Source of the DNA: Candidatus Parcubacteria bacterium
GTDB lineage: Bacteria; Patescibacteriota; Saccharimonadia; UBA4664; JBIOIQ01
NCBI GenBank assembly: GCA_963718875.1
Contig: OY970378.1
Location: 872,265-936,264 of the forward strand
DNA: 64,000 nucleotides
Reading direction: 5' to 3'
Made by a program: the position numbers and the translations under genes. The first letter of the stretch is position 1. Each line of letters starts with the position of its first letter. The notes under the pieces are model-generated. The model searched no databases. It saw only the letters and a list, made by a program, of their open reading frames with translations, and was not told where the DNA came from. Positions 3,083-60,988 of the stretch are shown piece by piece.

Positions 3083-3976
3083 CTAGCGCTTAAATCTAGG
3101 ACGGAGTCGACGGAATAAGACAGCAACTATGATAACTACTAGCATAAGTAGGCCCACTACTCTCCAATAGCCAGTTATTGCAAAAACTAGCGAAACATGA
3201 CTTTTGCCGGTATCTTTGTCAGTAACTAAAAGCGGAATAAGACCAACATAACTACCTGCCTTGGAAAAGCTGAATTCACGCTTGTTACCGGGAAAAACTA
3301 GTGGGCCGTTCAAGTAAGTGCGCCTACCCCACCAGGCTGCTCGGACAGATACAGTTGGGTTATAGGCAATTGCCCTAGGAGCCTCCCCCACGTTTGCATA
3401 TTGGATTGTTCCCTTTATGCCATTGCCAAACTGAAAAAAAGCCGACTTCAGGCTAGAAATTGTGCCACTTTTTTTACCTGCCCCGCCGTTATCAAGGATA
3501 AGTAACGTTCCGGCTTTGGCGCTCTGCATGATGATATTGCCACTAACTGATGTGGGCTTTGGGACGGTGGCAAAAAAAATCGCACCATAAACTCCACCTT
3601 TAGGCAGCTTGTTGGGATCGATTGTAAAAGCAACTCTTACGGCTTCACGTGGACCTAAGTCGAATTCTGAGGCCGACACTGTAATACCTCTACTTATTGC
3701 AGCATCCTGATAAAATTGCAGGTCCCCGGCTAAGTTTATTTGTCGAAAAGCGCTGACTTCACTTTTTAGTGAAATAGTAGAGTCGGATGGGTTAGAAACA
3801 TCAACAAACCCCAACTTTGAGGTAGACCCGGTTAAGCTATCTTGATATTTGAGAGGCGAGACTGAAATAGTGGGGATACTAGCGAACAGCGGTTGTGGCC
3901 GTATCAGCCCACAGAGGATCAAACTAAAAAACGCCGGGATTACTAAACCAAGCCGCAGGATAAGCAGGCGCTTCAT
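3083..3976 (-). CDS. DUF916/DUF3324-like (CscA-like) membrane-anchored surface protein
   Basis: Signal peptide, ...KGGVYGAIFFATVP... motif, C-terminal TM (VVGLLMLVVIIVAVLF) and basic tail RRLRPRFKR. A 4-nt ATGA overlap with the upstream gene indicates an operon. Confidence 0.5.
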   Translation of the reverse strand: MKRLLILRLGLVIPAFFSLILCGLIRPQPLFASIPTISVSPLKYQDSLTGSTSKLGFVDVSNPSDSTISLKSEVSAFRQINLAGDLQFYQDAAISRGITVSASEFDLGPREAVRVAFTIDPNKLPKGGVYGAIFFATVPKPTSVSGNIIMQSAKAGTLLILDNGGAGKKSGTISSLKSAFFQFGNGIKGTIQYANVGEAPRAIAYNPTVSVRAAWWGRRTYLNGPLVFPGNKREFSFSKAGSYVGLIPLLVTDKDTGKSHVSLVFAITGYWRVVGLLMLVVIIVAVLFRRLRPRFKR

Positions 3977-5334
3977 GGTTTGAGCGTGGCAGTGTAAACC
4001 ACGGAATTCGTATAAGTACCAGACTTTTGAGATGTGGCAGTGTCGGCTCGAAACCGAACTGAGCTTTTTTCTGGTACCCCACCATTAAGTCCAGTGCGGG
4101 AGTGAAATATGGTGGGAGTGGTTGGAATAAAGGCAAAGTTAAAATTGGGCGTACTCCCCCACTTGACTTCTACTTGAGTCCCACTTATAAGGCTAAATCC
4201 TAGGCCCTTGGTTGTTCCCTCATTCCAGGCTGCCGGCGTTGCGATGTTTGCTGTAACACCCGGAATAGTGGTGATTCCGTCAACGGTATGAAGCAAGTCG
4301 TGGTCCTCTTGAATATAGAGCGAATAGCCACCGGCGTCAGTGCGCACCACAGCGTCGGCATCATAAATTTGGGAGATTCCTGGTGTAATGTTTGGCACCG
4401 TAAAAGCACTAGAAGAACCGGCGGCAGCAGAAGAAAAATCATTTTCTATCTCGCGAGGACTTAATGCCCGGCTATATAATTTAACCTCATCAATAGTGCC
4501 TTTAAAAAAGTTGGCTAGGTCATCTCGAGCGCCTAGCTTTAAAGTGTTGGTGTTGGTGGTGGTGGTGCCTATTGACCCCGTGCCAACCGGCGAGCCATCG
4601 ATGTAGAGTGTGGCGCTACCACCAGATTTGGTTACTGCTATGTGCGCAAACGTCCCCGTCGGAACTGCAGAACTACTAGTGATAGTTCGTAAAGCCGTGT
4701 CAAATCCTAAAAACTGTAATTTACCTGTGGTCTGCTCAATGCGCAGCTCGTAAGTATTGTTGGCTGAGCCATTGCCGGTGGTTTTAGCGGCAATGGTGGC
4801 ATTGTTGGCATAGTCGGTAGGTTTAACCCAAGCCTCGATGGTGAGCGATCCGGTCAAGTTTAAATTGGCATTACTGGCAATATTGGTATATTGATTTGAC
4901 CCATTCAAACCCAGTCCTTGGCCCAACTTACCGCTAACCCAAGTGGGCGTCCCGCTGGAATAACCATGGTTTTCGTTGGTGCTAACGTCATAGGCCACCG
5001 TGCCAACTCCCGTATCTAAGGGGTAATACGAGACGGTCCCACTAGGCAACACCGCCAAAGTTATCGACTGAGAAAGCTGAGCCACGTAACCTTGCGTCAG
5101 TTTGTAACTTTGACTCGATCCGCTTCCTACAACCCCTTCTCCACCGGAGTCATAAAGTTTATACGAGGTTGAGGAACCGGCTCCGCCAAAGGTGCTTCCA
5201 ACATTAGGATCTAACCGATAATTTGGACTGGTTAATGAGGTGGCATGGCCTGTGATTGGCAATGCCAAGATAAGCATAACAAACCCGGCTATGTAACGTC
5301 GCACCTCTGTACTCGAATTAAGCATTACCAACAT
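3973..5334 (-). CDS. Secreted LamG/concanavalin A-like lectin domain protein with a WxL-like C-terminus (...GTYTNSVVYTATLKP). Start taken at internal ATG 5334; the ORF as listed runs to 5613.
   Basis: LamG_3-like motifs (LTIEAWVKP, TFAHIAVTKSGGSATLYIDGSPVG, FKGTIDEVKLYSRALSPREI). Signal peptide MLVMLNSSTEVRRYIAGFVMLILALPITGHA. The ORF portion upstream of 5334 overlaps the IS element. Confidence 0.6.
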   Translation of the reverse strand: MLVMLNSSTEVRRYIAGFVMLILALPITGHATSLTSPNYRLDPNVGSTFGGAGSSTSYKLYDSGGEGVVGSGSSQSYKLTQGYVAQLSQSITLAVLPSGTVSYYPLDTGVGTVAYDVSTNENHGYSSGTPTWVSGKLGQGLGLNGSNQYTNIASNANLNLTGSLTIEAWVKPTDYANNATIAAKTTGNGSANNTYELRIEQTTGKLQFLGFDTALRTITSSSAVPTGTFAHIAVTKSGGSATLYIDGSPVGTGSIGTTTTNTNTLKLGARDDLANFFKGTIDEVKLYSRALSPREIENDFSSAAAGSSSAFTVPNITPGISQIYDADAVVRTDAGGYSLYIQEDHDLLHTVDGITTIPGVTANIATPAAWNEGTTKGLGFSLISGTQVEVKWGSTPNFNFAFIPTTPTIFHSRTGLNGGVPEKSSVRFRADTATSQKSGTYTNSVVYTATLKP

Positions 5335-5375
5335 TATGCCAAACTTGTTTGGTTTTGGCCAGCTAGGAAAGGGCG

Positions 5376-6254
5376 GGTTCTGTCCACTAAAACGGAACAG
5401 ACATACTTTTAAGTAATATAAATGGGCTACTGAACAACTCTGGGTGGTTCTTTCTAGCCTGGAACTCTCTGAGTAATCCCGGTAAGAACTGATGCATGAA
5501 GCGGTCGCGGGTACGTCTGGTAAACCGATCCAGGCAGCTCCAGATCCCTTCAATGCGGTTGGTTGGTCCAAAGTGGCCAATGGAATGGTTGCAGATCTCC
5601 AGACCATAGCCAACTTCCATTAGGCCAAGGTGAGAGGCGTGAGCATCAGCAAAGATCAGGCTACCGAGAGTGGCATACTGATCGAGAAAACCTTCTATGC
5701 TATCCTGCTCACAATCTAGTATCTCAGCTAGTCTTACGAGGTTGGTTTCCCGGTCCACGATACCCATAACAATGTGTTGGTTACCATATTTCTGCCGACC
5801 TAGATAGCTCTGGTCTATCTCCAGTAGCCCGACTAACTGGCTCTTGTCGACTGGTAGTCTAGATCGCAAGCGTTCTAACCAGCGTTGGATCGTCCAGTAG
5901 GACAGCCCCGTTGAGGTGATAATGTCGCCAGGTGACTGCTTACCGCTCCAGCAAGTCACCAGTTCCAGAATCCTCCTCCAGCCGAGCTTAGACGACCCAA
6001 AGCCGACTTGTTTCTTTAAGCTCCATTTACGACGACAGGTGCCGCACCAAAGATACTGAGTAGTTATGTGGATGTTTGAGTGAGACATCCAAGGGCAAAT
6101 AGGGCCCTCGGGATAAAGATGTACTAGCACTTGGTTAAAACATTCTTGGTCTGTTACCGGTAGATCTGCTAATGTGGTCATTGGAACAAGTCTCCTTTTC
6201 TAACTGGTTAGTCCTAGTTAGATTGTAGCTTGTTCCGCTTTAGTGTAATGAACC
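5376..6254. mobile_element. IS1595-family insertion sequence (879 bp) with ~25-bp imperfect terminal inverted repeats and a 9-bp direct repeat (GAAAGGGCG) at both flanks
   Basis: Left end GGTTCTGTCCACTAAAACGGAACAG. Right end, reverse-complemented, is GGTTCATTACACTAAAGCGGAACAAG. Flanking GAAAGGGCG at 5367-5375 and 6255-6263. Single transposase ORF inside. Confidence 0.75.
5387..6181 (-). CDS. IS1595-family (ISXO2-like) DDE transposase with N-terminal zinc-ribbon
   Basis: 264 aa. N-terminal CPWMSHSNIHITTQYLWCGTCRRKW zinc ribbon. Length and architecture typical of IS1595. Sits inside the inverted-repeat-bounded element. Confidence 0.75.
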   Translation of the reverse strand: MTTLADLPVTDQECFNQVLVHLYPEGPICPWMSHSNIHITTQYLWCGTCRRKWSLKKQVGFGSSKLGWRRILELVTCWSGKQSPGDIITSTGLSYWTIQRWLERLRSRLPVDKSQLVGLLEIDQSYLGRQKYGNQHIVMGIVDRETNLVRLAEILDCEQDSIEGFLDQYATLGSLIFADAHASHLGLMEVGYGLEICNHSIGHFGPTNRIEGIWSCLDRFTRRTRDRFMHQFLPGLLREFQARKNHPELFSSPFILLKSMSVPF

Positions 6255-20134: not shown

Positions 20135-20431
20135 TTAGCTAGGATCGGGGCGCCTGTTGTGAGCCAGTTGCTTGCGAGCAGAGAGCGATAAAGTTAGCAC
20201 TACCGCTGAATATACCAGCCCCGTGACACAGCTACTTATTATGGAGGCGTGGGTGCTAACAACCAAATATGTGCCGGTGGATAGAGTAGCTCCCATTAAG
20301 CCGTAAGACAATTGCAACTTTGTTTTTGATGGCCTAAAAAACAAAAAAGTTGAGAATGCCACACTGGCTAGGGCTATCACGATGTGAATAAGTAATACCA
20401 TTACCAGTATTCTAAGGTAAAAGCTGACCAA
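20135..20431 (-). CDS. Hypothetical small membrane protein downstream of ctaB
   Basis: 98-aa ORF, hydrophobic, 20-nt overlap with the ctaB start region. Low support. Confidence 0.3.
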   Translation of the reverse strand: MVSFYLRILVMVLLIHIVIALASVAFSTFLFFRPSKTKLQLSYGLMGATLSTGTYLVVSTHASIISSCVTGLVYSAVVLTLSLSARKQLAHNRRPDPS

Positions 20432-21266
20432 AAGAAACCATTATTGAAAATGTCATAAGTACTTTGAGCGAAAACAAAAACATCTGGCGCCCCCATTGTT
20501 TATCGTCGATGGTATTAAATCCTTTTATTCCCTTACCAAGCCAAATAAGCCCAAGAATCAGCATCACTACCATATATATGTAGCCGCTATAGTGCAGAGC
20601 TGTCAAAGAGAAAGTAGCCAGTATAAACGCTACAATATATATGAGTATTTGAATTTTGGTCGTACGGGAGCCTTTTACAACCGGTAAAACTGGTATTCCA
20701 GCTGCCGCATAGTCATCCTGACGGTACATTGCTATGGCGTAAAAGTGCGGCATCTGCCAAAACACCAAAATCAAAAACAAAATGAGCGCTCCCCCATCGA
20801 AATGATTCGTAACGGCCACATATCCAGCGGCCGGTGGCATAGCTCCGGCAATACTGCCAATGATGGTGCCTAAAGGACCACGTCGCTTGGTGAATCCATA
20901 GATTGCTACATAGGTTATAAAACCCACGAGCCCTAGAAGAGCGGTTAAGACATTTGTGCCTATCAATAAAATCAAAAAGCCTAAAAGTTTTAGAATTGTG
21001 CCAAATAACAAGGCTGTAGAAGCGCTAATTTTGCCGGTGACCAGAGCTCGATTTTTTGTGCGCGCCATTTTTTGGTCAATACCGCGATCGATGTAATTAT
21101 TAAAAACACAAGCCGACGCTATCACCAGGGCAATGCCAATGAGAGTTGCGACCAACAAGCCAGCGTTAATTTTTAATTTTGACGCTAGCAGAAACCCGGC
21201 CGTGGCAGTAATAAGATTGCCATAAATAATGCCCGGCTTAGTGAGCCGGTAGTAGGTCTTGAACAA
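20412..21266 (-). CDS. ctaB: Protoheme IX farnesyltransferase (heme O synthase), UbiA family
   Basis: UbiA motif NNYIDRGIDQKMARTKNRALVTG. Multi-TM. Adjacent and divergent to the quinol oxidase operon. Confidence 0.85.
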   Translation of the reverse strand: MFKTYYRLTKPGIIYGNLITATAGFLLASKLKINAGLLVATLIGIALVIASACVFNNYIDRGIDQKMARTKNRALVTGKISASTALLFGTILKLLGFLILLIGTNVLTALLGLVGFITYVAIYGFTKRRGPLGTIIGSIAGAMPPAAGYVAVTNHFDGGALILFLILVFWQMPHFYAIAMYRQDDYAAAGIPVLPVVKGSRTTKIQILIYIVAFILATFSLTALHYSGYIYMVVMLILGLIWLGKGIKGFNTIDDKQWGRQMFLFSLKVLMTFSIMVSFGQLLP

Positions 21267-21276
21267 AACTATTTTT

Positions 21277-21846
21277 TTATTCCTTCAATTTTTTAGCAAG
21301 CAGCGAACCGACTGCATGGTGAATATGTGTGTTCCCGGTATCATCCGCTTCTTCCCGAGAATCCTCAAGAGGTCCAACCTCCTTGTACCCCAGCCTTTCA
21401 TAAAGCTCTCTTGCTCTGGGGTTGTCATCCTCAACTCCCAACATTGCTGTAACGACACCACGCTGCCTTATTCGCTCTTCCATTTCTGCAATCAACCTAG
21501 TGCCTAGCCCTAAGCCACGCAATGATTCCATCGTCGCAAGCTGCCACATATAGCCACCACCTTCGTGGTACATATAATCAATGCCGCCAATCGAAACAGG
21601 CTTACCGTTAGGAGCCCTTACCGCAAGATAGTCGACTTCGCCGGATGCTACCCTGTCTAAAGCTCGTTGAACTGAAAAAGGGTGTGATGGTCCGCCCGAC
21701 CATCCAATACCCCCCATGTCGGCTTCAGTAAGGTCAGTCACAGAAAGTGAATCAACTCCGGCAAGCTCAATCTGCCTCCGAACTTGTTGGGTCAGCGCAG
21801 TTTCATTGTCTCTCTCGTCGAAAGCATTTGCGTCGTTTTCGTTCAT
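21277..21846 (-). CDS. GNAT family N-acetyltransferase
   Basis: RGLGLGTRLIAEMEERIRQRGV (acetyl-CoA binding motif A) and LGVEDDNPRARELYERLGYK. Confidence 0.8.
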   Translation of the reverse strand: MNENDANAFDERDNETALTQQVRRQIELAGVDSLSVTDLTEADMGGIGWSGGPSHPFSVQRALDRVASGEVDYLAVRAPNGKPVSIGGIDYMYHEGGGYMWQLATMESLRGLGLGTRLIAEMEERIRQRGVVTAMLGVEDDNPRARELYERLGYKEVGPLEDSREEADDTGNTHIHHAVGSLLAKKLKE

Positions 21847-21951
21847 ATTGTGTAGGTTAGCATAAATTTTCTTTTCTGACAGGTAGGAGGATCTAGGGTC
21901 ATGGTATAGTTATTATTATGATAGCGGTTACGTCTACATGGGTTTAGGTTA

Positions 21952-22872
21952 GTGTCAAAAGTGAGCAAAAAAAGACTTAATCCGGGATGGATTGCGTTAG
22001 GCGCTTTTCTGGCGATAGTCGATTTTGTATTGCTCATCAGATATTTGCTGCACGGTAAAAACGTTGCAGTGTTTAACCCGCAAGGGTTGATTGCTCACGA
22101 GCAACTTAGTCTTATAATCTTAGTTGTAACTGTGCTCCTTACTATTGGCATCCCTACACTTTTTTTGCTGTTTTTTACAGCCTGGAAATATAGGGAATCG
22201 AATACCAAAGCAGTTCGTGTTTCTAACGGCCATCATAGTAAGTTTCTCTTCCTTGCTATATGGCTAATCCCAACCACGTTTATGATTGTACTTGCTACTA
22301 TCATGTGGTCCGCTACCCATAGGCTGGTTCCGCAAGAATCGATTGTTTCTGACGTTAAGCCCTTGAGAATCCAGGTCGTATCAATGCGCTGGAAGTGGTT
22401 GTTTATATATCCCGATCAAAAAATTGCGACGGTCAATTTTGTTCAGATTCCGCTAAATACACCGGTCCAATTTGAATTAACCGCCGATGAAGCGCCAATG
22501 AGTTCGTTCTGGATCCCAAATCTTGGCGGCCAACTGTACTCAATGACTGGCCATGTCAACCGTTTAAACCTGATGGCTGAGACGCCCGGAGATTATCCGG
22601 GGTCGTCGGCCGAAATAAATGGGGCTGGCTTTGCCGGCATGAAATTTACCGCCCGCGCCAGTAATACGGAAGATTTTGACAGTTGGGTTCAAGAAGTAAA
22701 GCAATCTCCAGATGTGCTCGATGCTGCTACATACCAAAGTATATTAAAACCGAGCGAAAACAATCCCACCGCATTCTATTCGGCCTACGACAGCAGCCTG
22801 TATGATAAAGTGGTTATGAAATATATGGGTTCACACGCCCACAAACCAACAAAATACGAGGCGGGACACTAA
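21952..22872 (+). CDS. cyoA: Quinol oxidase subunit II (CyoA-like, no CuA ligands)
   Basis: SSFWIPNLGGQLYSMTGHVNRLNLMAETPGDYPGSSAEINGAGFAGMKFTA closely parallels E. coli CyoA ([51 protein letters not shown]). No Cys/His CuA motif. Confidence 0.85.
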   Translation: MSKVSKKRLNPGWIALGAFLAIVDFVLLIRYLLHGKNVAVFNPQGLIAHEQLSLIILVVTVLLTIGIPTLFLLFFTAWKYRESNTKAVRVSNGHHSKFLFLAIWLIPTTFMIVLATIMWSATHRLVPQESIVSDVKPLRIQVVSMRWKWLFIYPDQKIATVNFVQIPLNTPVQFELTADEAPMSSFWIPNLGGQLYSMTGHVNRLNLMAETPGDYPGSSAEINGAGFAGMKFTARASNTEDFDSWVQEVKQSPDVLDAATYQSILKPSENNPTAFYSAYDSSLYDKVVMKYMGSHAHKPTKYEAGH

Positions 22873-24962
22873 TGAAAGAACTACTTCTTGGTAAATTAGA
22901 CTGGAGCGCATTGCCACACGAATGGTTTACCATTGCTGGATCGATAGCCTTTATCGCTTTGGCATTAATTGTCGCCATTGTCATCACCCGTCAGAAACGC
23001 TGGAAATGGCTGTGGAACGAATGGCTGACATCGGTTGATCCAAAAAAGATTGGAATCATGTACTTTATTGTTGGAGGCTTTATGCTTCTGCGCGGGGGCT
23101 TGGATGCCATTATGTTATGGCTCCAGCAAGCCCTGTCAGCCGGCTCTTCACACGGCTTCCTTTCGGCTGACCATTTCCAGCAAATCTTTACAGCTCACGG
23201 TAATATCATGGTTTTCTTTGTGGCCATGGCCTTTATTTTTGGACTTATTAACTACATTGTGCCGCTACAGATTGGTGCGCGTGACCTGGCGTCACCCTTC
23301 TTGAACACCTTGGGATTTTGGCTATATGTCGGTGGAGTCCTCATGGTAAACATGTTCTTCCTCTTTGGTGGCGAATATGCCGCGACGGGCTGGCTGGCGG
23401 TTGCTCCATTGAGCGGGAAAGAATTTAGCCCAGGAGTGGGTGTGGATTATTGGATATGGAGCCTGCAGATTTCTGGTATTGGTACAACGCTCGGTGCTAT
23501 TAACTTTATTATGACGATTCTAAAAATGCGCGCACCAGGCATGAGCTTTCGAAAGATGCCGCTGTTTACCTGGGGTAGCTTATGCAGCATGCTCATGGCA
23601 GTAACCGTGTTCCCGCTGCTTACCGCAACGCTCTTCTTGATGTTTTTTGACCGGTATTTAGGCACGCACTTTTTTACGACCACGGGCGGCGGTGATCCCA
23701 TGATGTATACCAATCTTATTTGGATGTGGGGACACCCAGAGGTTTATATTTTGATGCTGCCTGCCTTTGGAGTGTTTTCTGAAGTAGTTTCAACATTTAG
23801 CCGCAAGAAAATTGCCAGCTATACGTCAAACGTACTGGGGATGATTGGCGTTTCAGCGCTGGCCCTTTCTGTGTGGTTGCATCATTTCTTTACCATGGGT
23901 GCGGGTGCAAATGTAAATGCATTCTTTGGGGTTATGACAATGATAATTGCAATACCGACATCTGTCTTGGTGTTTACGTGGATAGCTACTATGCACAAAG
24001 GGCGAATACGGTTTGATACGCCTATGCTATGGTTCCTTGGGTTTATCTCTATATTTGCAATTGGCGGCATGGCCGGTGTAATGCTGGCCGTGCCGCCGGC
24101 AGATTTCCAGCTGCACAATAGTCTGTTCCTGGTGGCGCATTTCCATTCTATGGTCATTGGCGGAGTGCTGTTTGGTATCTTTTGCGGCATAACGTACTGG
24201 TTTCCAAAGATTACGGGCTTTAAGCTTAATGAGCGGATTGGCCGGAATGCCTTTTGGTGCTGGATAATTGGATTCTGCATGTCTTTTATTCCAATGTACG
24301 TACTGGGGCTTATGGGAGCCACAAGGCGGCTTGACCATTACGACTCTTCCACTGGCTGGCAGCCATTGTTTATCCTCATGTTGATCGGTGGGATAATCAT
24401 CATGGCGGGTGTGGCTTTGCAGCTTGCCCAGATTTTAGCCAGTGTTATCCAGAAAAAACGCTTGCGCGATACAACCGGTGATCCCTGGAATGGGCGAACC
24501 CTGGAATGGGCTACCGCTTCACCGCCACAGTTTTACAATTTTACCGTTATCCCACACGTTACCACTCGCGATGCATTTTGGGAAATGAAGCAACACGGAC
24601 TACCAAAACCCGCCTATGAAGATATCCATATGCCCAAAAATACAGCTGCTGGCATATATATATCTATCTTTGCCTTCTTGGTTGGCTTTGCTTTTGTGTG
24701 GGAGATTATCTGGCTGGCTGTGGTATCGATAATTGGCATTATTGTAGTGTTTGTTATTCACGCCTTCAACGAACACAGCGAGTACATCCTTACGGCTGCA
24801 GAGGTGCAACAACTCGAGGAAGCTAGGATAAAGAAAGCCCCGGTTGCTAGCCCAAACAAGCATGACGATGCGGATGAAGATATGAGTGTTTGGAAACTTG
24901 TAAAAGTTGTGTTTGCATTCATTTGGGATGTTGTAAAAAACAAACGGTGGCGAAAATGGTAA
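22872..24962 (+). CDS. cyoB: Heme-copper quinol oxidase subunit I
   Basis: GHPEVYILMLPAFGVFSEV, WLHHFFTMGA, 12+ TM segments. Confidence 0.95.
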   Translation: MKELLLGKLDWSALPHEWFTIAGSIAFIALALIVAIVITRQKRWKWLWNEWLTSVDPKKIGIMYFIVGGFMLLRGGLDAIMLWLQQALSAGSSHGFLSADHFQQIFTAHGNIMVFFVAMAFIFGLINYIVPLQIGARDLASPFLNTLGFWLYVGGVLMVNMFFLFGGEYAATGWLAVAPLSGKEFSPGVGVDYWIWSLQISGIGTTLGAINFIMTILKMRAPGMSFRKMPLFTWGSLCSMLMAVTVFPLLTATLFLMFFDRYLGTHFFTTTGGGDPMMYTNLIWMWGHPEVYILMLPAFGVFSEVVSTFSRKKIASYTSNVLGMIGVSALALSVWLHHFFTMGAGANVNAFFGVMTMIIAIPTSVLVFTWIATMHKGRIRFDTPMLWFLGFISIFAIGGMAGVMLAVPPADFQLHNSLFLVAHFHSMVIGGVLFGIFCGITYWFPKITGFKLNERIGRNAFWCWIIGFCMSFIPMYVLGLMGATRRLDHYDSSTGWQPLFILMLIGGIIIMAGVALQLAQILASVIQKKRLRDTTGDPWNGRTLEWATASPPQFYNFTVIPHVTTRDAFWEMKQHGLPKPAYEDIHMPKNTAAGIYISIFAFLVGFAFVWEIIWLAVVSIIGIIVVFVIHAFNEHSEYILTAAEVQQLEEARIKKAPVASPNKHDDADEDMSVWKLVKVVFAFIWDVVKNKRWRKW

Positions 24963-25549
24963 CAGAACCCGGGATGAGCCACCACGAATCAGAAGCCAAC
25001 GATAGAGCAATGTTTGGTTTCTGGGTTTATTTGATGACAGATCTTTTAATGTTTGCTGTTCTTTTCGCAGTGTACGCGGTGTTGCACAGCCATACGCTCG
25101 GCGGAGAGTCAGGACGTGAACTGTTTAGCCTCCCGCTGGCATTGACTGAAACCCTGATTCTTCTCACTAGTAGCTTTACGTGCGGGATCGCCATGATCGC
25201 TGCTCGCCGGGGCAACAAAACCCAAACACTCTTTTGGTTCGGCATTACGTTTGCACTTGGTCTGGCTTTCCTTGGTTTGGAATTGAAAGAATTTGCTGAG
25301 TTTATTCATGAGGGCCACACTCTACGCAGCAATGCATTCTTGTCCTCGTTCTTTGTGCTGGTGGGAACGCACGGGCTACACATTACTTCCGGACTGCTGT
25401 GGATGGCGATTACCCTGGGATTTATTTTGAAACGTGGACTTAACTCTCACATGGTGCGCAAGTTGGCCTTGCTAAGCTTGTTTTGGCACTTTCTGGATAT
25501 TGTGTGGATCTTTATCTTCACCATTGTGTACTTAAGGGCATTCGTATGA
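24956..25549 (+). CDS. cyoC: Quinol oxidase subunit III
   Basis: FGFWVYLMTDLLMFAVLFAVYAVL... resembles the CyoC N-terminus. ATGGTAA overlap with the cyoB stop. Confidence 0.9.
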   Translation: MVTEPGMSHHESEANDRAMFGFWVYLMTDLLMFAVLFAVYAVLHSHTLGGESGRELFSLPLALTETLILLTSSFTCGIAMIAARRGNKTQTLFWFGITFALGLAFLGLELKEFAEFIHEGHTLRSNAFLSSFFVLVGTHGLHITSGLLWMAITLGFILKRGLNSHMVRKLALLSLFWHFLDIVWIFIFTIVYLRAFV

Positions 25550-26239
25550 GCACTCCATCACACAACTCAAATGGCGAGTCAAAGAGCGAACATGGAACTA
25601 TGGCATCCTATGTAATCGGATTTATACTGTCTTTGGTATTCACCTTCATACCGTACTATTTGGTGGTAAGCCAAACCATTTCGGGTAACTGCTTTGCTGG
25701 CAACAATATTAGTATTTGCTGTGATACAAATGATCGTCCAAATAACATTTTTTCTGCACTTGGGGCGTGGGCCAAAACCAAATTGGAACTTGTTCTTCTT
25801 CATAGCGACGGTCGGTATTATTCTGGTCGTGGTGGGAGGCTCAATACTGATTATCAACAACCTGTACTACAATATGCTGCCACTAGACCAGGCCAAGAAG
25901 CTTACAAACGGTGAGGGTATATACCAGATAGGTGGTGAAAAGACCGGAGCTTGTCAGGAGATACAAGCCAATCACAAAATTACGATTAAAAATGGCTTAG
26001 TGAGTCCTCTGCACACTATAGCGCATAAGTGCGACACACTGACGTTTATCAATGAAGACAATGAAGTGCGAGAAATTACTTTTGGAACGCATCCTGAGCA
26101 CGGTGTGTATGCAGGGGAAGATGAACTGGTGGTTCGAAAAGGGCGAAGCAAGTCAATAACGCTGTCTGAGCCGGGTACCTATCAGTTCCATGATCATTTA
26201 CAAGCCGAGATAGCCGGCGACTTTTCCGTAACCCCGTGA
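25546..26239 (+). CDS. cyoD: Quinol oxidase subunit IV (CyoD-like) that needs a +1 frameshift near 25685, with an unusual ~115-aa C-terminal cupredoxin-like extension
   Basis: The cyoC frame encodes TM1 (SYVIGFILSLVFTFIPYYLVV). The +1 frame (open from 25670) encodes ATILVFAVIQMIVQITFFLHLG...WNLFFFIATVGIILVVVGGSILIINNLYYNM, matching CyoD. It then continues to 26239 with a beta-rich segment containing His and Cys residues. Confidence 0.55.
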
Positions 26240-26507: not shown

Positions 26508-28268
26508 ATGAATCGTACTGTTTATAAACATTTATTGAATTCTTACGGCCGCCGGTTTGGCTATTGGTTTGGTGTTGTTACAGAGTTGGTGAGGCTATTA
26601 TGTCTGCGCGTTCTAAGCGCCGTTTTTATGGCTCAAGCGGTCGCAAAAGTGGCGGCCGGAGATGTTCCCGCTGCAAAGCAGAGTATCTTGTATTTTTTGG
26701 TGCTGTTTTGTGTGGGCCTAACCGCTGGGGCAATTGGTGATCTTGTAGCCTTTAAATCGGAAAACATTCAATATCGGCGGCTGTTACTTGATTTCTACAC
26801 AAGGTTAACAGGAAAAGACATGTCGTTTTACCGAGATAATCAAACCGGCTACTTAGCGAGCGCATTCCGACAGTACTTAGATGCGGCTATAGTATTGGCG
26901 CGGTTTTTCCGTTGGAACGTACTTGGCACGATTGTATCGTTATTGGTGCCCGTAGCAGTACTTTTGTTTATCAGCTGGCGAGCTGGAGTAGCTGCGCTCG
27001 CGATAGTATTAGTTCAAGTTGTTTACGTAATATGGAGCTCCGCCAAGGCCAATAAATACCGCGATCAAACTCACGAGGTCTACCGCAAGCTAACTGGCGA
27101 AGTCGCGGATGATATTACCAATATCGTTTCACTCAAATCCGGCGGACAAGACCAAAGCAAAAGGATAGAGGCTATTGCCAAGAAAGAAACTCAGGCTTTT
27201 TGGTTGATGCGCAAAACTAACACTCTATTGGATTTTCCTCGTAGCCTCATCACGGCTGTCGGCGTGACAGCTGTTTTTTACCTGATTATATCTAAGTCTT
27301 CTTCTAGTCCAGCTTCGATTGGGTTAATTGTACTTACGCTTACATACATGTTCCAAATGATGCGTAATGTCGCTGATTTGCCCGATCTAATCCAGCGGCA
27401 TGACGACCTTATTACCAAGCTATATCCCACGCTGCAATACTTAAGTCCAGATCATGAAAATATTGTTGACCCGCCCGTTCCCCAGGATTTAAAAATTACC
27501 AATGGAGCTATTAGTATTAAAAACGTTAGTTTTAGCTACCAGTCCCACTCTCAGAGGCGTAAGCGAATTGATGTCTTCAATAATTTTAGCCTGGAGATAG
27601 CCGGCGGCGAAAGAGTGGGTGTGGTTGGGCTATCCGGTATGGGCAAAAGTACTTTAGCCAGCCTTTTGATGCGTTTTGACGATGTTGATTCGGGCACCAT
27701 TAAGATTGATGGGATTGATTTGCGTGAGGTTAAGCAGGCGGAGCTGCACCAAAAAATAGCCTACGTTCCGCAGGAGCCTTTACTATTTCATCGCACCGTT
27801 AGAGACAACATTGCCTATTTTAACCCCGCTGCAAGCCAAGCTGACATAATTCGAGCCGCCAAAGCGGCTCATGCGCACGACTTTATTGAGCGTTTGCCAA
27901 AAGGATACGACACGATTGTGGGCGAACGTGGACTTAAGTTATCCGGCGGGCAAAAACAGCGGGTGGTGATAGCTCGGGCAATTCTAAAGAACGCCCCGAT
28001 TATGATTTTTGATGAAGCCACCAGCGCTCTGGATAGTGAGAGTGAGCAAATTATTCAACAGGCCTTGCCGGAGATTATTGGCAGTCAAACTGCTATTATA
28101 ATTGCCCACCGCTTAAGTACAGTGGCGGGCTTAGACCGAATTATCGTGATCCATGATGGCGTAGTGGAAGAAGAAGGCACTCACAATCAGTTACTTAAAC
28201 AAAAAGGGCGTTATTTTGCGCTGTGGCAAAAGCAAACTGCTGGAAACGTGATAAAGCTTCCATCTTGA
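26508..28268 (+). CDS. ABC exporter, fused permease/ATPase (MsbA-like)
   Basis: Six-TM N-terminal half. Walker A GLSGMGKST, signature LSGGQKQRV, Walker B IMIFDEATSALD. Confidence 0.9.
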   Translation: MNRTVYKHLLNSYGRRFGYWFGVVTELVRLLCLRVLSAVFMAQAVAKVAAGDVPAAKQSILYFLVLFCVGLTAGAIGDLVAFKSENIQYRRLLLDFYTRLTGKDMSFYRDNQTGYLASAFRQYLDAAIVLARFFRWNVLGTIVSLLVPVAVLLFISWRAGVAALAIVLVQVVYVIWSSAKANKYRDQTHEVYRKLTGEVADDITNIVSLKSGGQDQSKRIEAIAKKETQAFWLMRKTNTLLDFPRSLITAVGVTAVFYLIISKSSSSPASIGLIVLTLTYMFQMMRNVADLPDLIQRHDDLITKLYPTLQYLSPDHENIVDPPVPQDLKITNGAISIKNVSFSYQSHSQRRKRIDVFNNFSLEIAGGERVGVVGLSGMGKSTLASLLMRFDDVDSGTIKIDGIDLREVKQAELHQKIAYVPQEPLLFHRTVRDNIAYFNPAASQADIIRAAKAAHAHDFIERLPKGYDTIVGERGLKLSGGQKQRVVIARAILKNAPIMIFDEATSALDSESEQIIQQALPEIIGSQTAIIIAHRLSTVAGLDRIIVIHDGVVEEEGTHNQLLKQKGRYFALWQKQTAGNVIKLPS

Positions 28269-44916: not shown

Positions 44917-46098
44917 TTATTTAGGGCTGACACGATATATCTTATCATCTCCACTTCTTACCGTTCCGCGGCCATCACGGTTTGAAGTTAGTAGATAAAT
45001 AAATCCATCAGGCCCCTGCTGAACATCCCGCACCCGGCCAATATCAATGTCGGAAATTTTTTGGTGCGAAAGTATTTTACCCGAGCTAGATTGGTCGAAC
45101 ACCACTCGGTAAACACCCTCCCCTTTTAACGCTGCGAACAGCAAGTTGTTTTTAAATTGAGACAAAACATTTGAGTTGTAAAACATGGCTCCAGCCGGAG
45201 CAACGGCTGGCGTAAAAATAAGCAGCGGCGTTACAAAGCGACTATCGGTTTTATCATGGCTTATAATTGGCCAGCCGTAGTTAGCACCTTTTTGGATTAT
45301 GTTTAACTCGTCTCCTCCAGGGGGGCCGTCGTTGCCAGAAGGCCCATGCTCAGTAGCAAATAACTGGTTGGTCCCGGGTTGCCAGGCTAAGCCTTGGGGG
45401 TTACGGTGCCCTAACGTCCAAAGCGGCGAGCCCGCAACGGGGTTGTCTTGCGGAATGCTACCGTCAGAATTAATGCGTAAGATTTTACCGCCCAATGAGC
45501 TAAAGTTTTGGGGATAAGCTTTGTTGGTAGCGTCGCCAGTGGTAATGTAGAGTTTTTGGTCGCTCGGGCCAAAGCTTAAGCGGCACCCGGCATGGTTAAC
45601 GGCTGCTGGAATAGCGTCGATCAAGGTGGTTGGCGGTCCGGCCAAGTTCCCTTTGTCCTCAAACTTTACCACCCGGTCGGTCATTGTGCCGTTACTCAAA
45701 GAGGCATAGCAAGCATACACTTGCTTGTTTTTGACATAATCTGGGTCGAGCGCAAGGCCCATTAGACCCTCTTCAGACTGGCTTGAAACAGTAAAAGTTG
45801 CTAGTGGCGCTGACACTAGCTTGCCCGATTGGACAATTCGAATGGAACCGGAACGCTCGCTGACCAGCCAACGGTCTTTGGCGGTAAAAACTATACTCCA
45901 AGGCACGTATAGTCCGTCTACCACAGAAGTAACAGCATAGGACACTGGGCTAGATTGGGTTGCTTGCTTTGGGTGGGGTGGGGCTATGTTGGCCTTGGGT
46001 AATGGCACATTTGGTAGTCTAAATAAAGCTATAGCGCCGCCGATCAGCAAAGTGAATAAACATATTGATATTAGTTTGCGCGGATTAATTTGAAACAT
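44917..46098 (-). CDS. PQQ-dependent soluble sugar dehydrogenase (glucose/sorbosone dehydrogenase family), secreted
   Basis: Signal peptide, beta-propeller pattern, GFIYLLTSNRDGRG and PQGLAWQPGTNQLFATEHGPSGND motifs. Confidence 0.75.
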   Translation of the reverse strand: MFQINPRKLISICLFTLLIGGAIALFRLPNVPLPKANIAPPHPKQATQSSPVSYAVTSVVDGLYVPWSIVFTAKDRWLVSERSGSIRIVQSGKLVSAPLATFTVSSQSEEGLMGLALDPDYVKNKQVYACYASLSNGTMTDRVVKFEDKGNLAGPPTTLIDAIPAAVNHAGCRLSFGPSDQKLYITTGDATNKAYPQNFSSLGGKILRINSDGSIPQDNPVAGSPLWTLGHRNPQGLAWQPGTNQLFATEHGPSGNDGPPGGDELNIIQKGANYGWPIISHDKTDSRFVTPLLIFTPAVAPAGAMFYNSNVLSQFKNNLLFAALKGEGVYRVVFDQSSSGKILSHQKISDIDIGRVRDVQQGPDGFIYLLTSNRDGRGTVRSGDDKIYRVSPK

Positions 46099-46125
46099 TT
46101 GTCTCTTTTCGGGAGTAAGCTTGAT

Positions 46126-60162: not shown

Positions 60163-60468
60163 TTAGGATAGTTTGGCAATTATTAGCGCTTGGATTTGCT
60201 GGCGCTGGAGTGGGCCAAAGGAGCGGCTATCGGTGCTTTGGGTAAGATTGTCACCTTCAAGCCACACAGTGTTAGCATAAATTTTTGTAATGCGTTTAAT
60301 AATTGTGCGTTCCGAAGTTGCTGCAACTACCACTTGGCCAACTTTAAAGCGCGACCATCTTGCCCCAAGCAAAACATCGCCGGAATTATAGGCTGGAAGC
60401 ATGCTGCCACCCTGGACTCGGTAAAGTTTTACCGGAAACCACTTCATATAGTTCCTCGCTGACGACAA
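60163..60468 (-). CDS. sodX: S26/S24-type peptidase; nickel-SOD maturation protease (SodX-like)
   Basis: GGSMLPAYNSGDVLL and KRITKIYANTVWLEGDNLTQSTDSR motifs of the signal peptidase-like fold. Immediately downstream of sodN. Confidence 0.7.
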   Translation of the reverse strand: MSSARNYMKWFPVKLYRVQGGSMLPAYNSGDVLLGARWSRFKVGQVVVAATSERTIIKRITKIYANTVWLEGDNLTQSTDSRSFGPLQRQQIQALIIAKLS

Positions 60469-60864
60469 TTATGTTTTGGTTTCGGCAAAGACGGTGGCTA
60501 TCTCGTCTATCAGATCTAGTAGCTTTTGACCTTCAGCAGGATCAACCGTTTTTTTGGTAGTACCCGCTTGTTTGGTGGCGCGCCAAAATAAATCGTGCAG
60601 CTGGGGGTATTTTTCCACATGTTCTGGCTTAAAATAGTCGGTCCACAATACCCATAAATGATGTTTTACTAATTCCGCCCGAGTCTCTTTGATGATAATA
60701 GCCCGCACTTTGTCCTCGGTACTTAAACCATCGTATTTTTCCATAATTTTCGCGATTGACTCGGCTTCGATGCGTGCCTGGGCAGGGTCGTATACACCAC
60801 ATGGCAGGTCACAATGGGCATAAACTGTTTGGGCCGGCAGTTTTGCAATTAGCTGTTTGATCAT
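60469..60864 (-). CDS. sodN: Nickel superoxide dismutase precursor
   Basis: Leader MIKQLIAKLPAQTVYA followed by the Ni-hook HCDLPCGVYDP. Length about 130 aa. Confidence 0.9.
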   Translation of the reverse strand: MIKQLIAKLPAQTVYAHCDLPCGVYDPAQARIEAESIAKIMEKYDGLSTEDKVRAIIIKETRAELVKHHLWVLWTDYFKPEHVEKYPQLHDLFWRATKQAGTTKKTVDPAEGQKLLDLIDEIATVFAETKT

Positions 60865-60988
60865 AGGGTCTCCTTCATAACTACTTCTAGGTTACCATGG
60901 TTTGTCCCATCCCGAGAGGTACGCACCGATAACGTGGTCAGAGACTGGGGGCTTGAATCGGAGAGTTAGCATAAGTACAATATAAACC

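Follow-up and report, generated by a model that had tools for sequence, protein, structure and literature searches.

A cupredoxin-fold domain fused to quinol oxidase subunit IV in environmental Saccharibacteria

Introduction

The bo3 quinol oxidase of Escherichia coli is encoded in the order cyoA-B-C-D, with cyoE as the last gene of the operon; its subunit II lacks CuA, and its subunit IV (CyoD) is a protein of only 109 aa, reportedly with a role in CuB insertion. The Lys and Glu of the K pathway are regarded as indispensable in A-family oxidases; within the O2 cycle, it is solely the reductive half that requires the residues of this pathway. Ultrasmall and symbiotic, environmental Saccharibacteria lack a complete respiratory chain. 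Their cyo operon is already known, being carried by more than half of the environmental genomes of the group (PMC8406219; PMC11659515), and whether it serves respiration or oxygen scavenging has been a matter of debate ever since it was first described (PMC6031116, PMC8406219). Its presence in a reduced genome, considered notable in a sequence-only reading of the DNA analysed here, is thus not unusual within the group.

Cupredoxins with and without an electron-transfer role offer a further comparison. One case is AcoP (PDB 7z3b), a cupredoxin of Acidithiobacillus ferrooxidans that is anchored in the membrane and whose gene accompanies those of a terminal oxidase. It is associated with this heme-copper oxidase both physically and functionally; the protein is a polypeptide of its own, its copper site contains a Cys, and its partner is a cytochrome c oxidase. 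CupA of Streptococcus pneumoniae (4f2e), the EfeO/FtrB domains (7wgu, 8vuk) and a Bacillus anthracis Cupredoxin_1 protein (4hcf) are cupredoxin-fold metal handlers, and provide precedents for membrane-tethered or periplasmic domains of this fold that bind metal without blue-copper electron transfer. None of these is fused to an oxidase subunit.

The locus described here lies in a window of 64,000 nucleotides from an environmental Saccharibacterium, and its cyoABCD genes encode an A-family, CuA-less heme-copper quinol oxidase. Gene order and the CuA-less subunit II are shared with E. coli, to whose proteins CyoB is 60%, CyoA 43%, CyoC 50% and CyoD 41% identical. Against this background several differences emerge: cyoE is divergent, CyoA has lost E89, CyoB has Leu in place of K362, an R80W replacement at window residue W83, changes at 159–165 and a C-terminal extension, and CyoD comprises 230 aa, including a cupredoxin-fold domain predicted to face outward. 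Unlike AcoP, this domain is covalently fused to quinol oxidase subunit IV and has no Cys ligand. We consider it quite probable that the locus combines a native fusion CyoD of about 230 aa, an indel specific to the present sequence, a non-canonical metal domain and a variant of the bo3 enzyme. A literature search found no paper on a CyoD-cupredoxin fusion or on loss of the K pathway.

Locus and oxidase genes

Features of the locus are collected in Table 1. All five cyo genes were found, so that the complete CuA-less quinol oxidase with heme O synthase proposed from the sequence alone is borne out. A single operon of cyoE and cyoABCD, proposed along with it, held only in that the genes are present: cyoE is transcribed divergently and a GNAT gene separates it from cyoA, which places it outside the cyoABCD operon. 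This GNAT gene is also found in the nearest relative (a Logan contig) and is missing from the same position in related loci L002 and L004, whose gene spacing likewise shows the 7-nt overlap of cyoB and cyoC.

Table 1. Coordinates of features in the window (numbering of the whole stretch).
Feature	Coordinates	Strand	Remarks
cyoE, heme O synthase, 284 aa	20412..21266	-	divergent from cyoABCD
GNAT acetyltransferase gene between cyoE and cyoA, not a cyo gene	21277..21846	-	PF00583 E = 1e-15
cyoA, subunit II, 306 aa	21952..22872	+	GTG start, CuA-less
cyoB, subunit I, 696 aa	22872..24962	+	heme and CuB ligands all present
cyoC, subunit III, 197 aa	24956..25549	+	TIGR02842 236.4 bits, cutoff 223.75
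cyoD 5' segment, residues 1-47	25546..25686	+	N-terminus, TM1, short outer loop ending at Gly47
AA dinucleotide, one base supernumerary	25687..25688	+	frameshift
cyoD 3' segment, residues 48-110	25688..25876	+	TM2, inner loop GRGPKP, TM3
cyoD linker, residues 111-141	25877..25969	+	short helix 112-123; alignment A4 and model
cyoD cupredoxin-fold domain, residues 142-230 and stop codon	25970..26239	+	

Profile searches placed CyoC, CyoE and a repaired CyoD (with a provisional junction) above their NCBIfam equivalog cutoffs, with CyoB and CyoA just below theirs. CyoE scored 365.9 bits against NF003348 (cutoff 285) and matched PF01040 UbiA with E = 3e-65. For CyoB the TIGR02843 score was 955.8 bits (cutoff 1020), and for CyoA the TIGR01433 score was 247 bits (cutoff 266), accompanied by a COX_ARM match with E = 5e-14. 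The CuA loop of CyoA reads SAEINGAGFAGM and contains no Cys. Repaired CyoD covered TIGR02847 in full (1-96 of 96) with 89.5 bits (cutoff 81.45), a score that, like the PF13473 Cupredoxin_1 match of the whole protein, belongs to the provisional repair (SVT for SGT at the junction), two residues off the final one.

The cyoD reading frame

The cyoD start codon (ATG 25546) overlaps the cyoC stop as ATGA, and its frame is open through ...VVSQTISG (GGT 25684-86). Past 25686 this frame encodes a sequence unrelated to the family (NCFAGNN...) and ends in a stop codon at 25912-14. In the +1 frame, TAA 25667-69 blocks reading farther upstream, and translation from ACT 25688 gives TALLATILVFAVIQ... up to TGA 26237-39. 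Since the start frame is good to 25686 and the +1 frame from 25688, the shift must fall within 25687-25688, in the direction and inside the 25680-25690 interval previously proposed. A DNA alignment with four relatives likewise revealed one extra base here, all four having a 1-nt gap, and removal of one A yields a protein of 230 aa whose junction is identical to the family consensus ...VSGTALLATIL....

This shift is, however, no property of the gene, as had been supposed when cyoD was said to need it. Rather than a standard cyoD of about 110 aa that stops ahead of non-coding DNA, all 49 related Saccharibacteria loci encode the fusion, extension included, in frame, and the protein database holds approximately 885 homologues, typically of about 230 aa, with the listed matches all in one frame. 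The shift is hence peculiar to the window sequence, and by these comparisons the frame break is an indel of this assembly, with no programmed recoding. A consensus or base-calling error, or a variant of a minor strain, is likelier than a fixed inactivating mutation. The frameshift itself is without biological importance; in annotation it is best marked as a probable assembly error or strain-specific indel, with CyoD entered as the 230-aa protein.

An independent view of the locus was obtained from the Logan assembly of run ERR12037361, a contig of which has downstream genes collinear with those of the window, including an ABC transporter (586 aa) identical to the window's, and the same 268-nt spacer. 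A 263-codon ORF on this contig ends at the cyoD stop, where insertion of the A seen in the window would leave no more than 189 codons open; from ORF length and spacing, the cyoD frame of this near-identical strain appears to be intact, the fit being exact if the A is absent. A further strain, with a CyoB of 94% identity, is present in the sample as well. For the corrected CyoD of 230 aa or 263 aa, the protein collection contained no exact match, and a search of JGI metagenomes for the pattern CATTTCGGGT N{0,1} ACTGCTTTGCTGGC, aimed at DNA of the same species whether or not it has the extra A, returned 0 matches.

It is conceivable, if doubtful, that the strain truly carries the extra A as a fixed mutation. 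In that case cyoD would be a very recent pseudogene or split gene, yielding a 122-aa product made up of TM1 and a tail read out of frame, perhaps together with a product restarted at ATG 25730, and the oxidase would be impaired. Long-read indel errors concentrate in long homopolymers and the context here is AA, while the absence of other split genes among the approximately 30 ORFs in suspicious overlapping pairs of the window indicates that the assembly is not error-ridden; in this check strong Pfam matches spanned most or all of their profiles, the others being weak or missing, and no adjacent pair fell in the same family. The source's own gene call, a truncated 169-aa ORF (P0030), likewise offers only a fragment. 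Arguing against a fixed mutation, the 3' frame has remained intact over 183 codons with every clade-invariant residue kept, the near-identical strain appears to be in frame, and CyoA, CyoB and CyoC carry no excess of private substitutions (0, 1 and 0 changes at clade-invariant sites, as against clade medians of 0, 1 and 0); the cyo genes show no sign of decay. Far less probable still is a regulatory device in which full-length CyoD is recovered by programmed +1 frameshifting on the ribosome or by slippage during transcription. Its only attraction is the intact downstream frame and the perfect protein obtained after a +1 shift, against which the shift is seen in none of the 49 orthologous loci and in none of the listed homologues. 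Moreover, the site GGU AAC is not slippery. Re-pairing of a P-site tRNA-Gly from GGU to GUA is not possible, AAC in the A site is no stop codon and not obviously rare, and polymerase slippage would require a run much longer than two A. A prfB-like programmed +1 frameshift was rejected for a site that is neither conserved in orthologues nor slippery.

The cupredoxin-fold domain

The native cyoD of this clade thus encodes about 230 residues, in which the three transmembrane helices of subunit IV are followed by a conserved linker and a cupredoxin-fold domain of about 90 residues. AlphaFold2 modelled the helices at residues 18-41 (TM1), 48-72 and 79-108. Within the linker, E123, I125 and Q127 of the motif EGIYQ are invariant in alignment A4, and Cys136 is encoded at 25952-54. 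The short CyoD proteins of CPR bacteria end with the same xEGI motif. The three helices of the model, together with the positively charged GRGPKP loop between TM2 and TM3, would have the C-terminal domain face the outer (P) side.

An extension beyond NLYYNM, cupredoxin-like, rich in β-structure and outward-facing, had been anticipated at about 115 aa; it is real, although its length is 120 aa. On its own it matched PF13473 Cupredoxin_1 with 31.7 bits (gathering score 27), and AlphaFold2 folded the domain as a Greek-key β-sandwich with pLDDT >90, while alignment with related cyoD genes established the fusion as conserved. Identity over the domain is 60-82% across 119 homologues. Free-standing, membrane-anchored relatives of 130-145 aa fall into 461 clusters (E ≤ 1e-3), with 35-47% identity across the domain; its Cys pair, R175, HxxHxxY and FHDH recur in them, and a single N-terminal hydrophobic anchor stands where the fusion has CyoD. 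No name for this family was found in the sources consulted. Conservation of the Cys pair and of the His residues discussed below is at least 90% in 138 free-standing or fragmentary homologues. The one genomic context examined places such a homologue beside an MFS transporter gene and away from any oxidase, so that an oxidase-related role need not be ancestral for the domain.

The spaced His and Cys residues, previously taken to suggest a cupredoxin-like periplasmic domain, do not form a blue-copper site. The domain shares the Pfam family Cupredoxin_1 with small cupredoxins (amicyanin 1aac, the Nitrosopumilus cupredoxin 5fc9, plastocyanin, pseudoazurin), but a profile alignment with amicyanin found no type-1 set His...Cys-Xn-His-Xn-Met at the canonical positions: His53 is replaced by Arg175 and Cys92 by Asp216, and the positions of His95 and Met98 are variable. 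What the window domain conserves instead is an HxxH in the loop after strand 4 (His182 and His185, 26090-26101), an H-D-H at the start of the ligand loop (His215-Asp216-His217, 26189-26197) and a Cys pair elsewhere. The latter, Cys136 and Cys162 (26030-32), is kept in 176 of 176 fusions and lies away from the canonical ligand positions, an invariance suggesting that the two residues may form a disulfide. All four His are present in 149 of these fusions, two or three in 5 and at most one in 22; the quartet is missing in approximately 12-15% of fusions and in 17 of the 49 genome loci, and a metal-dependent function is therefore not universal. Motifs of the copper chaperones PCuAC, Sco, CtaG/Cox11 and CupA, such as H(M)X10MX21HXM, CxxxC or the CupA Cys/Met clusters, are absent from the domain, and no paralogue of it was found elsewhere in the window. 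In comparison with CupA, EfeO/FtrB and 4hcf, it lacks both sequence-level membership and their Cys/Met or Glu/His motifs. These features point away from a type-1 blue-copper electron carrier and, for most members, toward a putative non-canonical site made up of His182, His185, His215 and His217 with Asp216.

Two other views of the extension deserve consideration. That it is a chance open frame, non-coding DNA past a normal cyoD of about 110 aa, is practically out of the question: the short CyoD of other bacteria, some Saccharibacteria among them, is all that speaks for it, and it was refuted by the conservation of the domain and of its frame in 49 loci, the above-threshold Pfam match, the confident fold and the 461 clusters of relatives. 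The alternative of a working blue-copper electron carrier, providing a second, quinone-independent point of electron entry useful to an organism unable to make quinones, we judge improbable. The fold is that of amicyanin and plastocyanin, the P side is where CuA domains sit, and soil Saccharibacteria are thought to be quinone scavengers, with a 'blue-copper protein' in their electron-transport scheme (PMC6031116). Yet the thiolate ligand is gone, its position being occupied by Asp216, without exception across the 99 sequences of alignment A3, the first His ligand has given way to Arg and the second His and the Met to variable residues, and some domain-bearing members have lost the His quartet altogether. 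In addition, the quinol-site residues R71, D75, H98 and Q101 (E. coli numbering; R74, D78, H101 and Q104 in the window) are kept, so that quinol is still the expected donor.

As a role for the fused domain we tentatively propose that it may bind one metal ion, probably copper, and serve the oxidase in cis, aiding its assembly, stability or copper handling, with no function in electron entry. To members without the four His only a structural role would be left.

Active site and proton pathways

The heme and CuB ligands H106, H421, H419, H284, H333 and H334, as well as Y288 and E286, are kept in the window and in 45 of 45 members of the fusion clade (with a single H334Q exception), as are D135, N124, N142 and E286 of the D pathway in all 45 sequences. 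The K pathway, in which T359, S299, T352 and Y288 are retained, is incomplete. At the position of K362, represented in the window by Leu366 (TTG 23967-23969), 44 of the 45 clade members have Leu and one has Val, as compared to Lys in 27 of 27 short-CyoD operons. CyoA E89, to which Phe100 of the window aligns (22249-22251), is similarly a Glu in all 27 of the short-CyoD operons and mostly V, N, S or D in the fusion clade (37 of 45). Unexpectedly, every fusion operon has lost both hallmark K-pathway residues. With a fused domain and a dismantled canonical K pathway, the fusion-clade enzyme is a distinct variant of the bo3 type.

The interest of the locus lies in this enzyme variant, a clade with an outer cupredoxin-like domain on subunit IV and with the K-pathway Lys and Glu lost. 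It provides a concrete, testable handle on the role of the cyo operon, and proton-pathway research may find in it a natural 'K362L' oxidase. Loss of the K-pathway residues, combined with retention of the metal ligands, D pathway and quinol site and the gain of a His-rich outer domain, raises the rather unlikely prospect that the fusion-clade oxidase is no conventional O2-reducing proton pump, and might act mainly as a quinol peroxidase or detoxifier of reactive oxygen, or use a new proton or electron route involving the domain. K-channel mutants of cytochrome c oxidase retain peroxidase activity (PMC10095113). Such an unconventional function, if true, would bear on the old question of what this oxidase does in organisms without a respiratory chain. 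The oxidases of the fusion clade are otherwise under strong purifying selection.

Gene content of the cyo locus

Gene identities at the locus were assigned from an ORF map and profile searches, and are listed in the table together with the other features discussed. The sequence-only reading had joined cyoE to cyoABCD, and these genes are indeed all present and linked, but cyoE is divergently oriented and separated from cyoA by a GNAT acetyltransferase gene, placing it outside the operon. The GNAT gene occupies the same position in the closest relative (a Logan contig, ERR12037361), and is missing from it in more distant genomes carrying the CyoD fusion described below. On the cyoE strand, a 98-aa ORF begins 20 nt inside the cyoE 3' end; it looks hydrophobic and membrane-protein-like by eye, and may share a transcript with cyoE and encode a small membrane protein. 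The quinol oxidase had been considered notable for a reduced genome, a view overtaken by the literature, as the cyo operon of environmental Saccharibacteria is well documented and its role there, detoxification or respiration, is debated (PMC8406219; PMC11659515; PMC6031116).

Features of the window discussed in the text, with positions, strand and basis of assignment
Feature	Position	Strand	Basis
Laminin_G_3 gene, large	3973-5619		
ISXO2-like (IS1595 family) transposase-domain ORF	5387-6199	-	
98-aa ORF	20135-20431	-	
cyoE, heme O synthase	20412-21266	-	NF003348, 366 bits vs cutoff 285
GNAT acetyltransferase	21277-21846	-	PF00583
cyoA	21952-22872	+	TIGR01433, 247 bits
CyoA Phe100 codon	22249-22251		
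cyoB	22872-24962	+	TIGR02843, 956 bits
CyoB Leu366 codon	23967-23969		
cyoC	24956-25549	+	TIGR02842, 236 bits
cyoD, in two frames	25546-26239	+	ORF map, frame translation
ABC-transporter gene	26508-28268		
Glucose/sorbosone dehydrogenase-type gene, soluble	44917-46125	-	PF07995, E = 8e-87
Nickel superoxide dismutase (Sod_Ni) gene, followed by S26/S24-type peptidase gene	60163-60891	-	Sod_Ni, full-length match

The frame break in cyoD

Translation of cyoD starts at ATG 25546, in an ATGA overlap with the cyoC stop, and the first frame reads MSTPSH...YYLVVSQTISG up to GGT 25684-86, beyond which it runs into unrelated residues and a stop at 25912-14 (a product of 122 aa). The +1 frame, shut by TAA 25667-69 and open from 25670, reads TALLATILVFAVIQ... 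from ACT 25688 and ends at TGA 26237-39. The place and direction of the proposed frameshift were thus right, with the shift at 25687-88; that cyoD needs it was not borne out, since the gene has no shift in relatives. Alignment with the cyoD DNA of four relatives gives the window exactly one surplus base, between the Gly47 codon and the following codon, and deletion of one A of 25687-88 restores ...VVSQTISGTALLATIL..., identical to the family consensus ...VSGTALLATIL.... The corrected 230-aa CyoD has 885 homologues in a large protein collection; among the 120 listed, nearly all are 212–244 aa long and cover 92–100% of it at up to 82% identity. The sole 100% match among those listed, P0030, is just 169 aa long and comes from a 1,189,924-bp contig; it is evidently the fragment that the source genome's gene caller made of the broken cyoD. 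At 49 loci in species-representative genomes, nearly all labelled Saccharibacteria, Saccharimonadales or Patescibacteria, the full-length protein is encoded in a single frame, so that both the extension and its fusion to CyoD, for which comparison with related genes had been suggested, prove to be conserved.

The frameshift is therefore an ordinary error or strain-specific indel. Recoding is highly improbable, as the shift is absent from all orthologues, GGU AAC offers no +1 re-pairing, and AA is too short for polymerase slippage. A genuine null allele of this strain is a possible but rather doubtful explanation. Private substitutions at clade-invariant sites of CyoA, CyoB and CyoC number 0, 1 and 0, equal to the clade medians, and the corrected CyoD retains every invariant residue, so that any real mutation would have to be very recent. 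Of some thirty other ORFs of the window, picked as possible split pairs, none looks split: where a Pfam match is strong it spans the profile wholly or for the greater part, the remaining ORFs have weak matches or none, and adjacent ORFs never share a Pfam family. The assembly is therefore not riddled with indels. Most telling, albeit indirect, is the length of an ORF in an independent assembly. An 8978-bp contig of the Logan assembly of ERR12037361 encodes an ABC-transporter protein identical over 586 aa to that encoded downstream of cyoD in the window, with a cyoD-ABC spacer of equal size (268 nt) and collinear downstream genes. An ORF of 263 codons begins at position 2 of this contig and closes at the cyoD stop; the matching frame in the window is open for just 189 codons, and without the extra A for exactly 263, pointing to an intact frame. 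A look-up of the exact corrected CyoD sequence in the protein collection found no entry, and the ERR12037361 sample also contains a second strain, with a CyoB 94% identical to that of the window. On balance the extra A is probably a consensus error or a variant that is not fixed. The 94% CyoB and the identical ABC transporter of the two close strains lie on different contigs (8883 and 8978 bp), which seem to overlap by ~30 nt near window position 25446-25474, resembling a branch of a de Bruijn graph.

Fold and location of the CyoD extension

The cupredoxin-like character proposed for the C-terminal extension was upheld by profile, model and structural comparison. Residues 111–230 of CyoD are 60–82% identical to the window sequence across 119 homologues, and the extension alone matches Pfam Cupredoxin_1 (31.7 bits, threshold 27). 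AlphaFold2, run on a 120-sequence alignment, predicts a domain made wholly of beta structure, with pLDDT exceeding 90 from residue ~140 onward, and a Foldseek search of the PDB returned amicyanin, the Nitrosopumilus cupredoxin 5fc9, pseudoazurin, plastocyanin and the EfeO cupredoxin domain (E ~3e-7). In the full-length model, transmembrane helices (18–41, 48–72, 79–108) are followed by a short helix (112–123) and the domain (142–229). Three helices, a positively charged GRGPKP loop between TM2 and TM3, and the topology of E. coli CyoD, whose N-terminus is inside and C-terminus outside, together suggest that the cupredoxin domain faces the outer side of the membrane.

A candidate metal site

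A blue-copper site was considered and rejected, since a profile of 99 fused and free-standing domains aligned to amicyanin (E = 0.015) lacks the type-1 ligands: His53 and Cys92 correspond to Arg175 and Asp216, and His95 and Met98 to variable positions. Cys136 and Cys162 are kept in all 176 fusions, and would form a structural disulfide, consistent with an extracytoplasmic location. Other conserved residues are Tyr188, Asp216 and four histidines: H182 and H185 belong to the loop that follows strand four, and H215 and H217 sit where the ligand loop begins. This quartet is as a rule kept or lost together: of the 176 fusions, 149 have the complete set, 22 have no more than one of these histidines, and just five have two or three. 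At the 49 genome loci both cysteines are universal, and the HxxHxxY motif is missing from 17. Such conservation suggests one non-canonical His-rich metal site (four His and Asp216), probably ancestral to the domain and secondarily lost in some lineages that still keep the domain.

Loss of the canonical K pathway in the fusion clade

Mapped onto E. coli CyoB (60% identity), the window CyoB retains all ligands, Y288, E286, D135 and the quinol-site residues R71, D75, H98 and Q101; metal ligands, D pathway and quinol site are kept alike in operons with the fusion and in those with a short CyoD lacking the domain. At the K362 position it has Leu366 (IPTSVLVF, as against IPTGVKIF in E. coli). Wherever this stretch was found, the fetched fusion-operon loci have Leu, bar one Val, and the short-CyoD loci (other Saccharibacteria, other CPR bacteria, Neisseriaceae, Kerstersia, Bartonella, Waddlia and E. 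coli) all have Lys; full-length CyoB alignments give 44 Leu and one Val among 45 fusion sequences and Lys in 27/27 short-CyoD ones. CyoA E89, the K-pathway entrance in subunit II, is Glu in all 27 short-CyoD operons and variable in the fusion clade (Phe100 in the window).

Further CyoB changes of the clade are R80W (45/45), S159F, L160F, an inserted Gly, F165Y, F138S, F311A and S327A, with W83, F162, F163 and Y169 of the window at E. coli positions 80, 159, 160 and 165; the 159–165 cluster may line the quinone-tail groove. CyoB is also extended at its C-terminus, where the last ~30 residues include a hydrophobic stretch. In CyoA, four substitutions specific to the clade (N172S, M189H, N209E, S211N, E. 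coli numbering) lie in the periplasmic cupredoxin domain; none restores a Cys, ruling out a regained CuA site. In a neighbour-joining CyoB tree the 45 fusion-operon sequences form one clade, so that fusion and K-pathway loss map to one branch; their co-occurrence is a single historical event and not statistical evidence of functional coupling.

Mutagenesis of the Rhodobacter enzyme found K362 and the subunit II Glu to be essential (PMC9687966). K-channel mutants characteristically keep peroxidase activity, because the K channel plays no part in that stage (PMC10095113). A natural "K362L" clade under strong purifying selection is therefore unexpected. The fusion-clade oxidase may, we hypothesize, catalyse an altered reaction or use an altered proton route. 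A 2018 study of a rhizosphere Saccharibacterium described subunit I as having only "some functional residues" and mentioned an unspecified "blue-copper protein" (PMC6031116). Full-text literature searches pairing Saccharibacteria or cyoD with cupredoxin, Saccharibacteria with blue copper, and Saccharibacteria or cyoB with the K pathway turned up no account of either the fusion or the K-pathway loss. Hundreds of fusion proteins, with both Pfam matches, are entered in databases as "cytochrome o ubiquinol oxidase subunit IV". The architecture can thus already be seen there, but is uncharacterised; its conservation together with the K-pathway loss is moderately interesting and open to experiment.

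Origin and possible role of the domain

An exhaustive search without a profile, using the 120-aa extension as query, returned 461 clusters at E <= 1e-3. Of the best 150, most are 130–145 aa long, and in them an N-terminal hydrophobic anchor precedes the same domain with its conserved residues. These free-standing anchored homologues imply that a membrane-anchored protein of this kind existed before the fusion and was attached to CyoD by it. Their family (P0133-P0272) is sizeable and unnamed, and has the Cys pair and His quartet; one member gene, directly after an MFS transporter gene on a forest-soil contig (L087, 8001-8420), has an uninformative context. In other Saccharibacteria and in CPR bacteria outside that group, CyoD is short (119–141 aa), and at the loci compared (L056-L080) its C-terminal tail has a conserved xEG(I/Y), e.g. 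NEGYIPQ, DEGINPR or HEGI, corresponding to the start of the fusion linker (NDEGIYQ, with invariant E123, I125 and Q127). This tail may be a contact element older than the fusion.

As to function, a tentative proposal is that the domain would hold a metal, probably copper, and act in cis on the oxidase, aiding assembly, stability or copper handling and not transferring electrons; in fusions without the histidines, a structural role alone would be left. AcoP, a membrane-tethered cupredoxin fold associated with an oxidase, and CupA, a membrane-tethered cupredoxin-fold copper chaperone, are precedents, although the CyoD domain belongs to neither family. E. coli subunit IV reportedly assists CuB insertion.

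Other genes in the window

The nickel superoxide dismutase gene is followed by a gene for an S26/S24-type peptidase, probably its maturation protease, and the pair fits an oxygen-exposed lifestyle. Enzymes of the glucose/sorbosone dehydrogenase type usually require PQQ, an odd need for a reduced genome. The transposase-domain ORF overlaps the open frame of the Laminin_G_3 gene.
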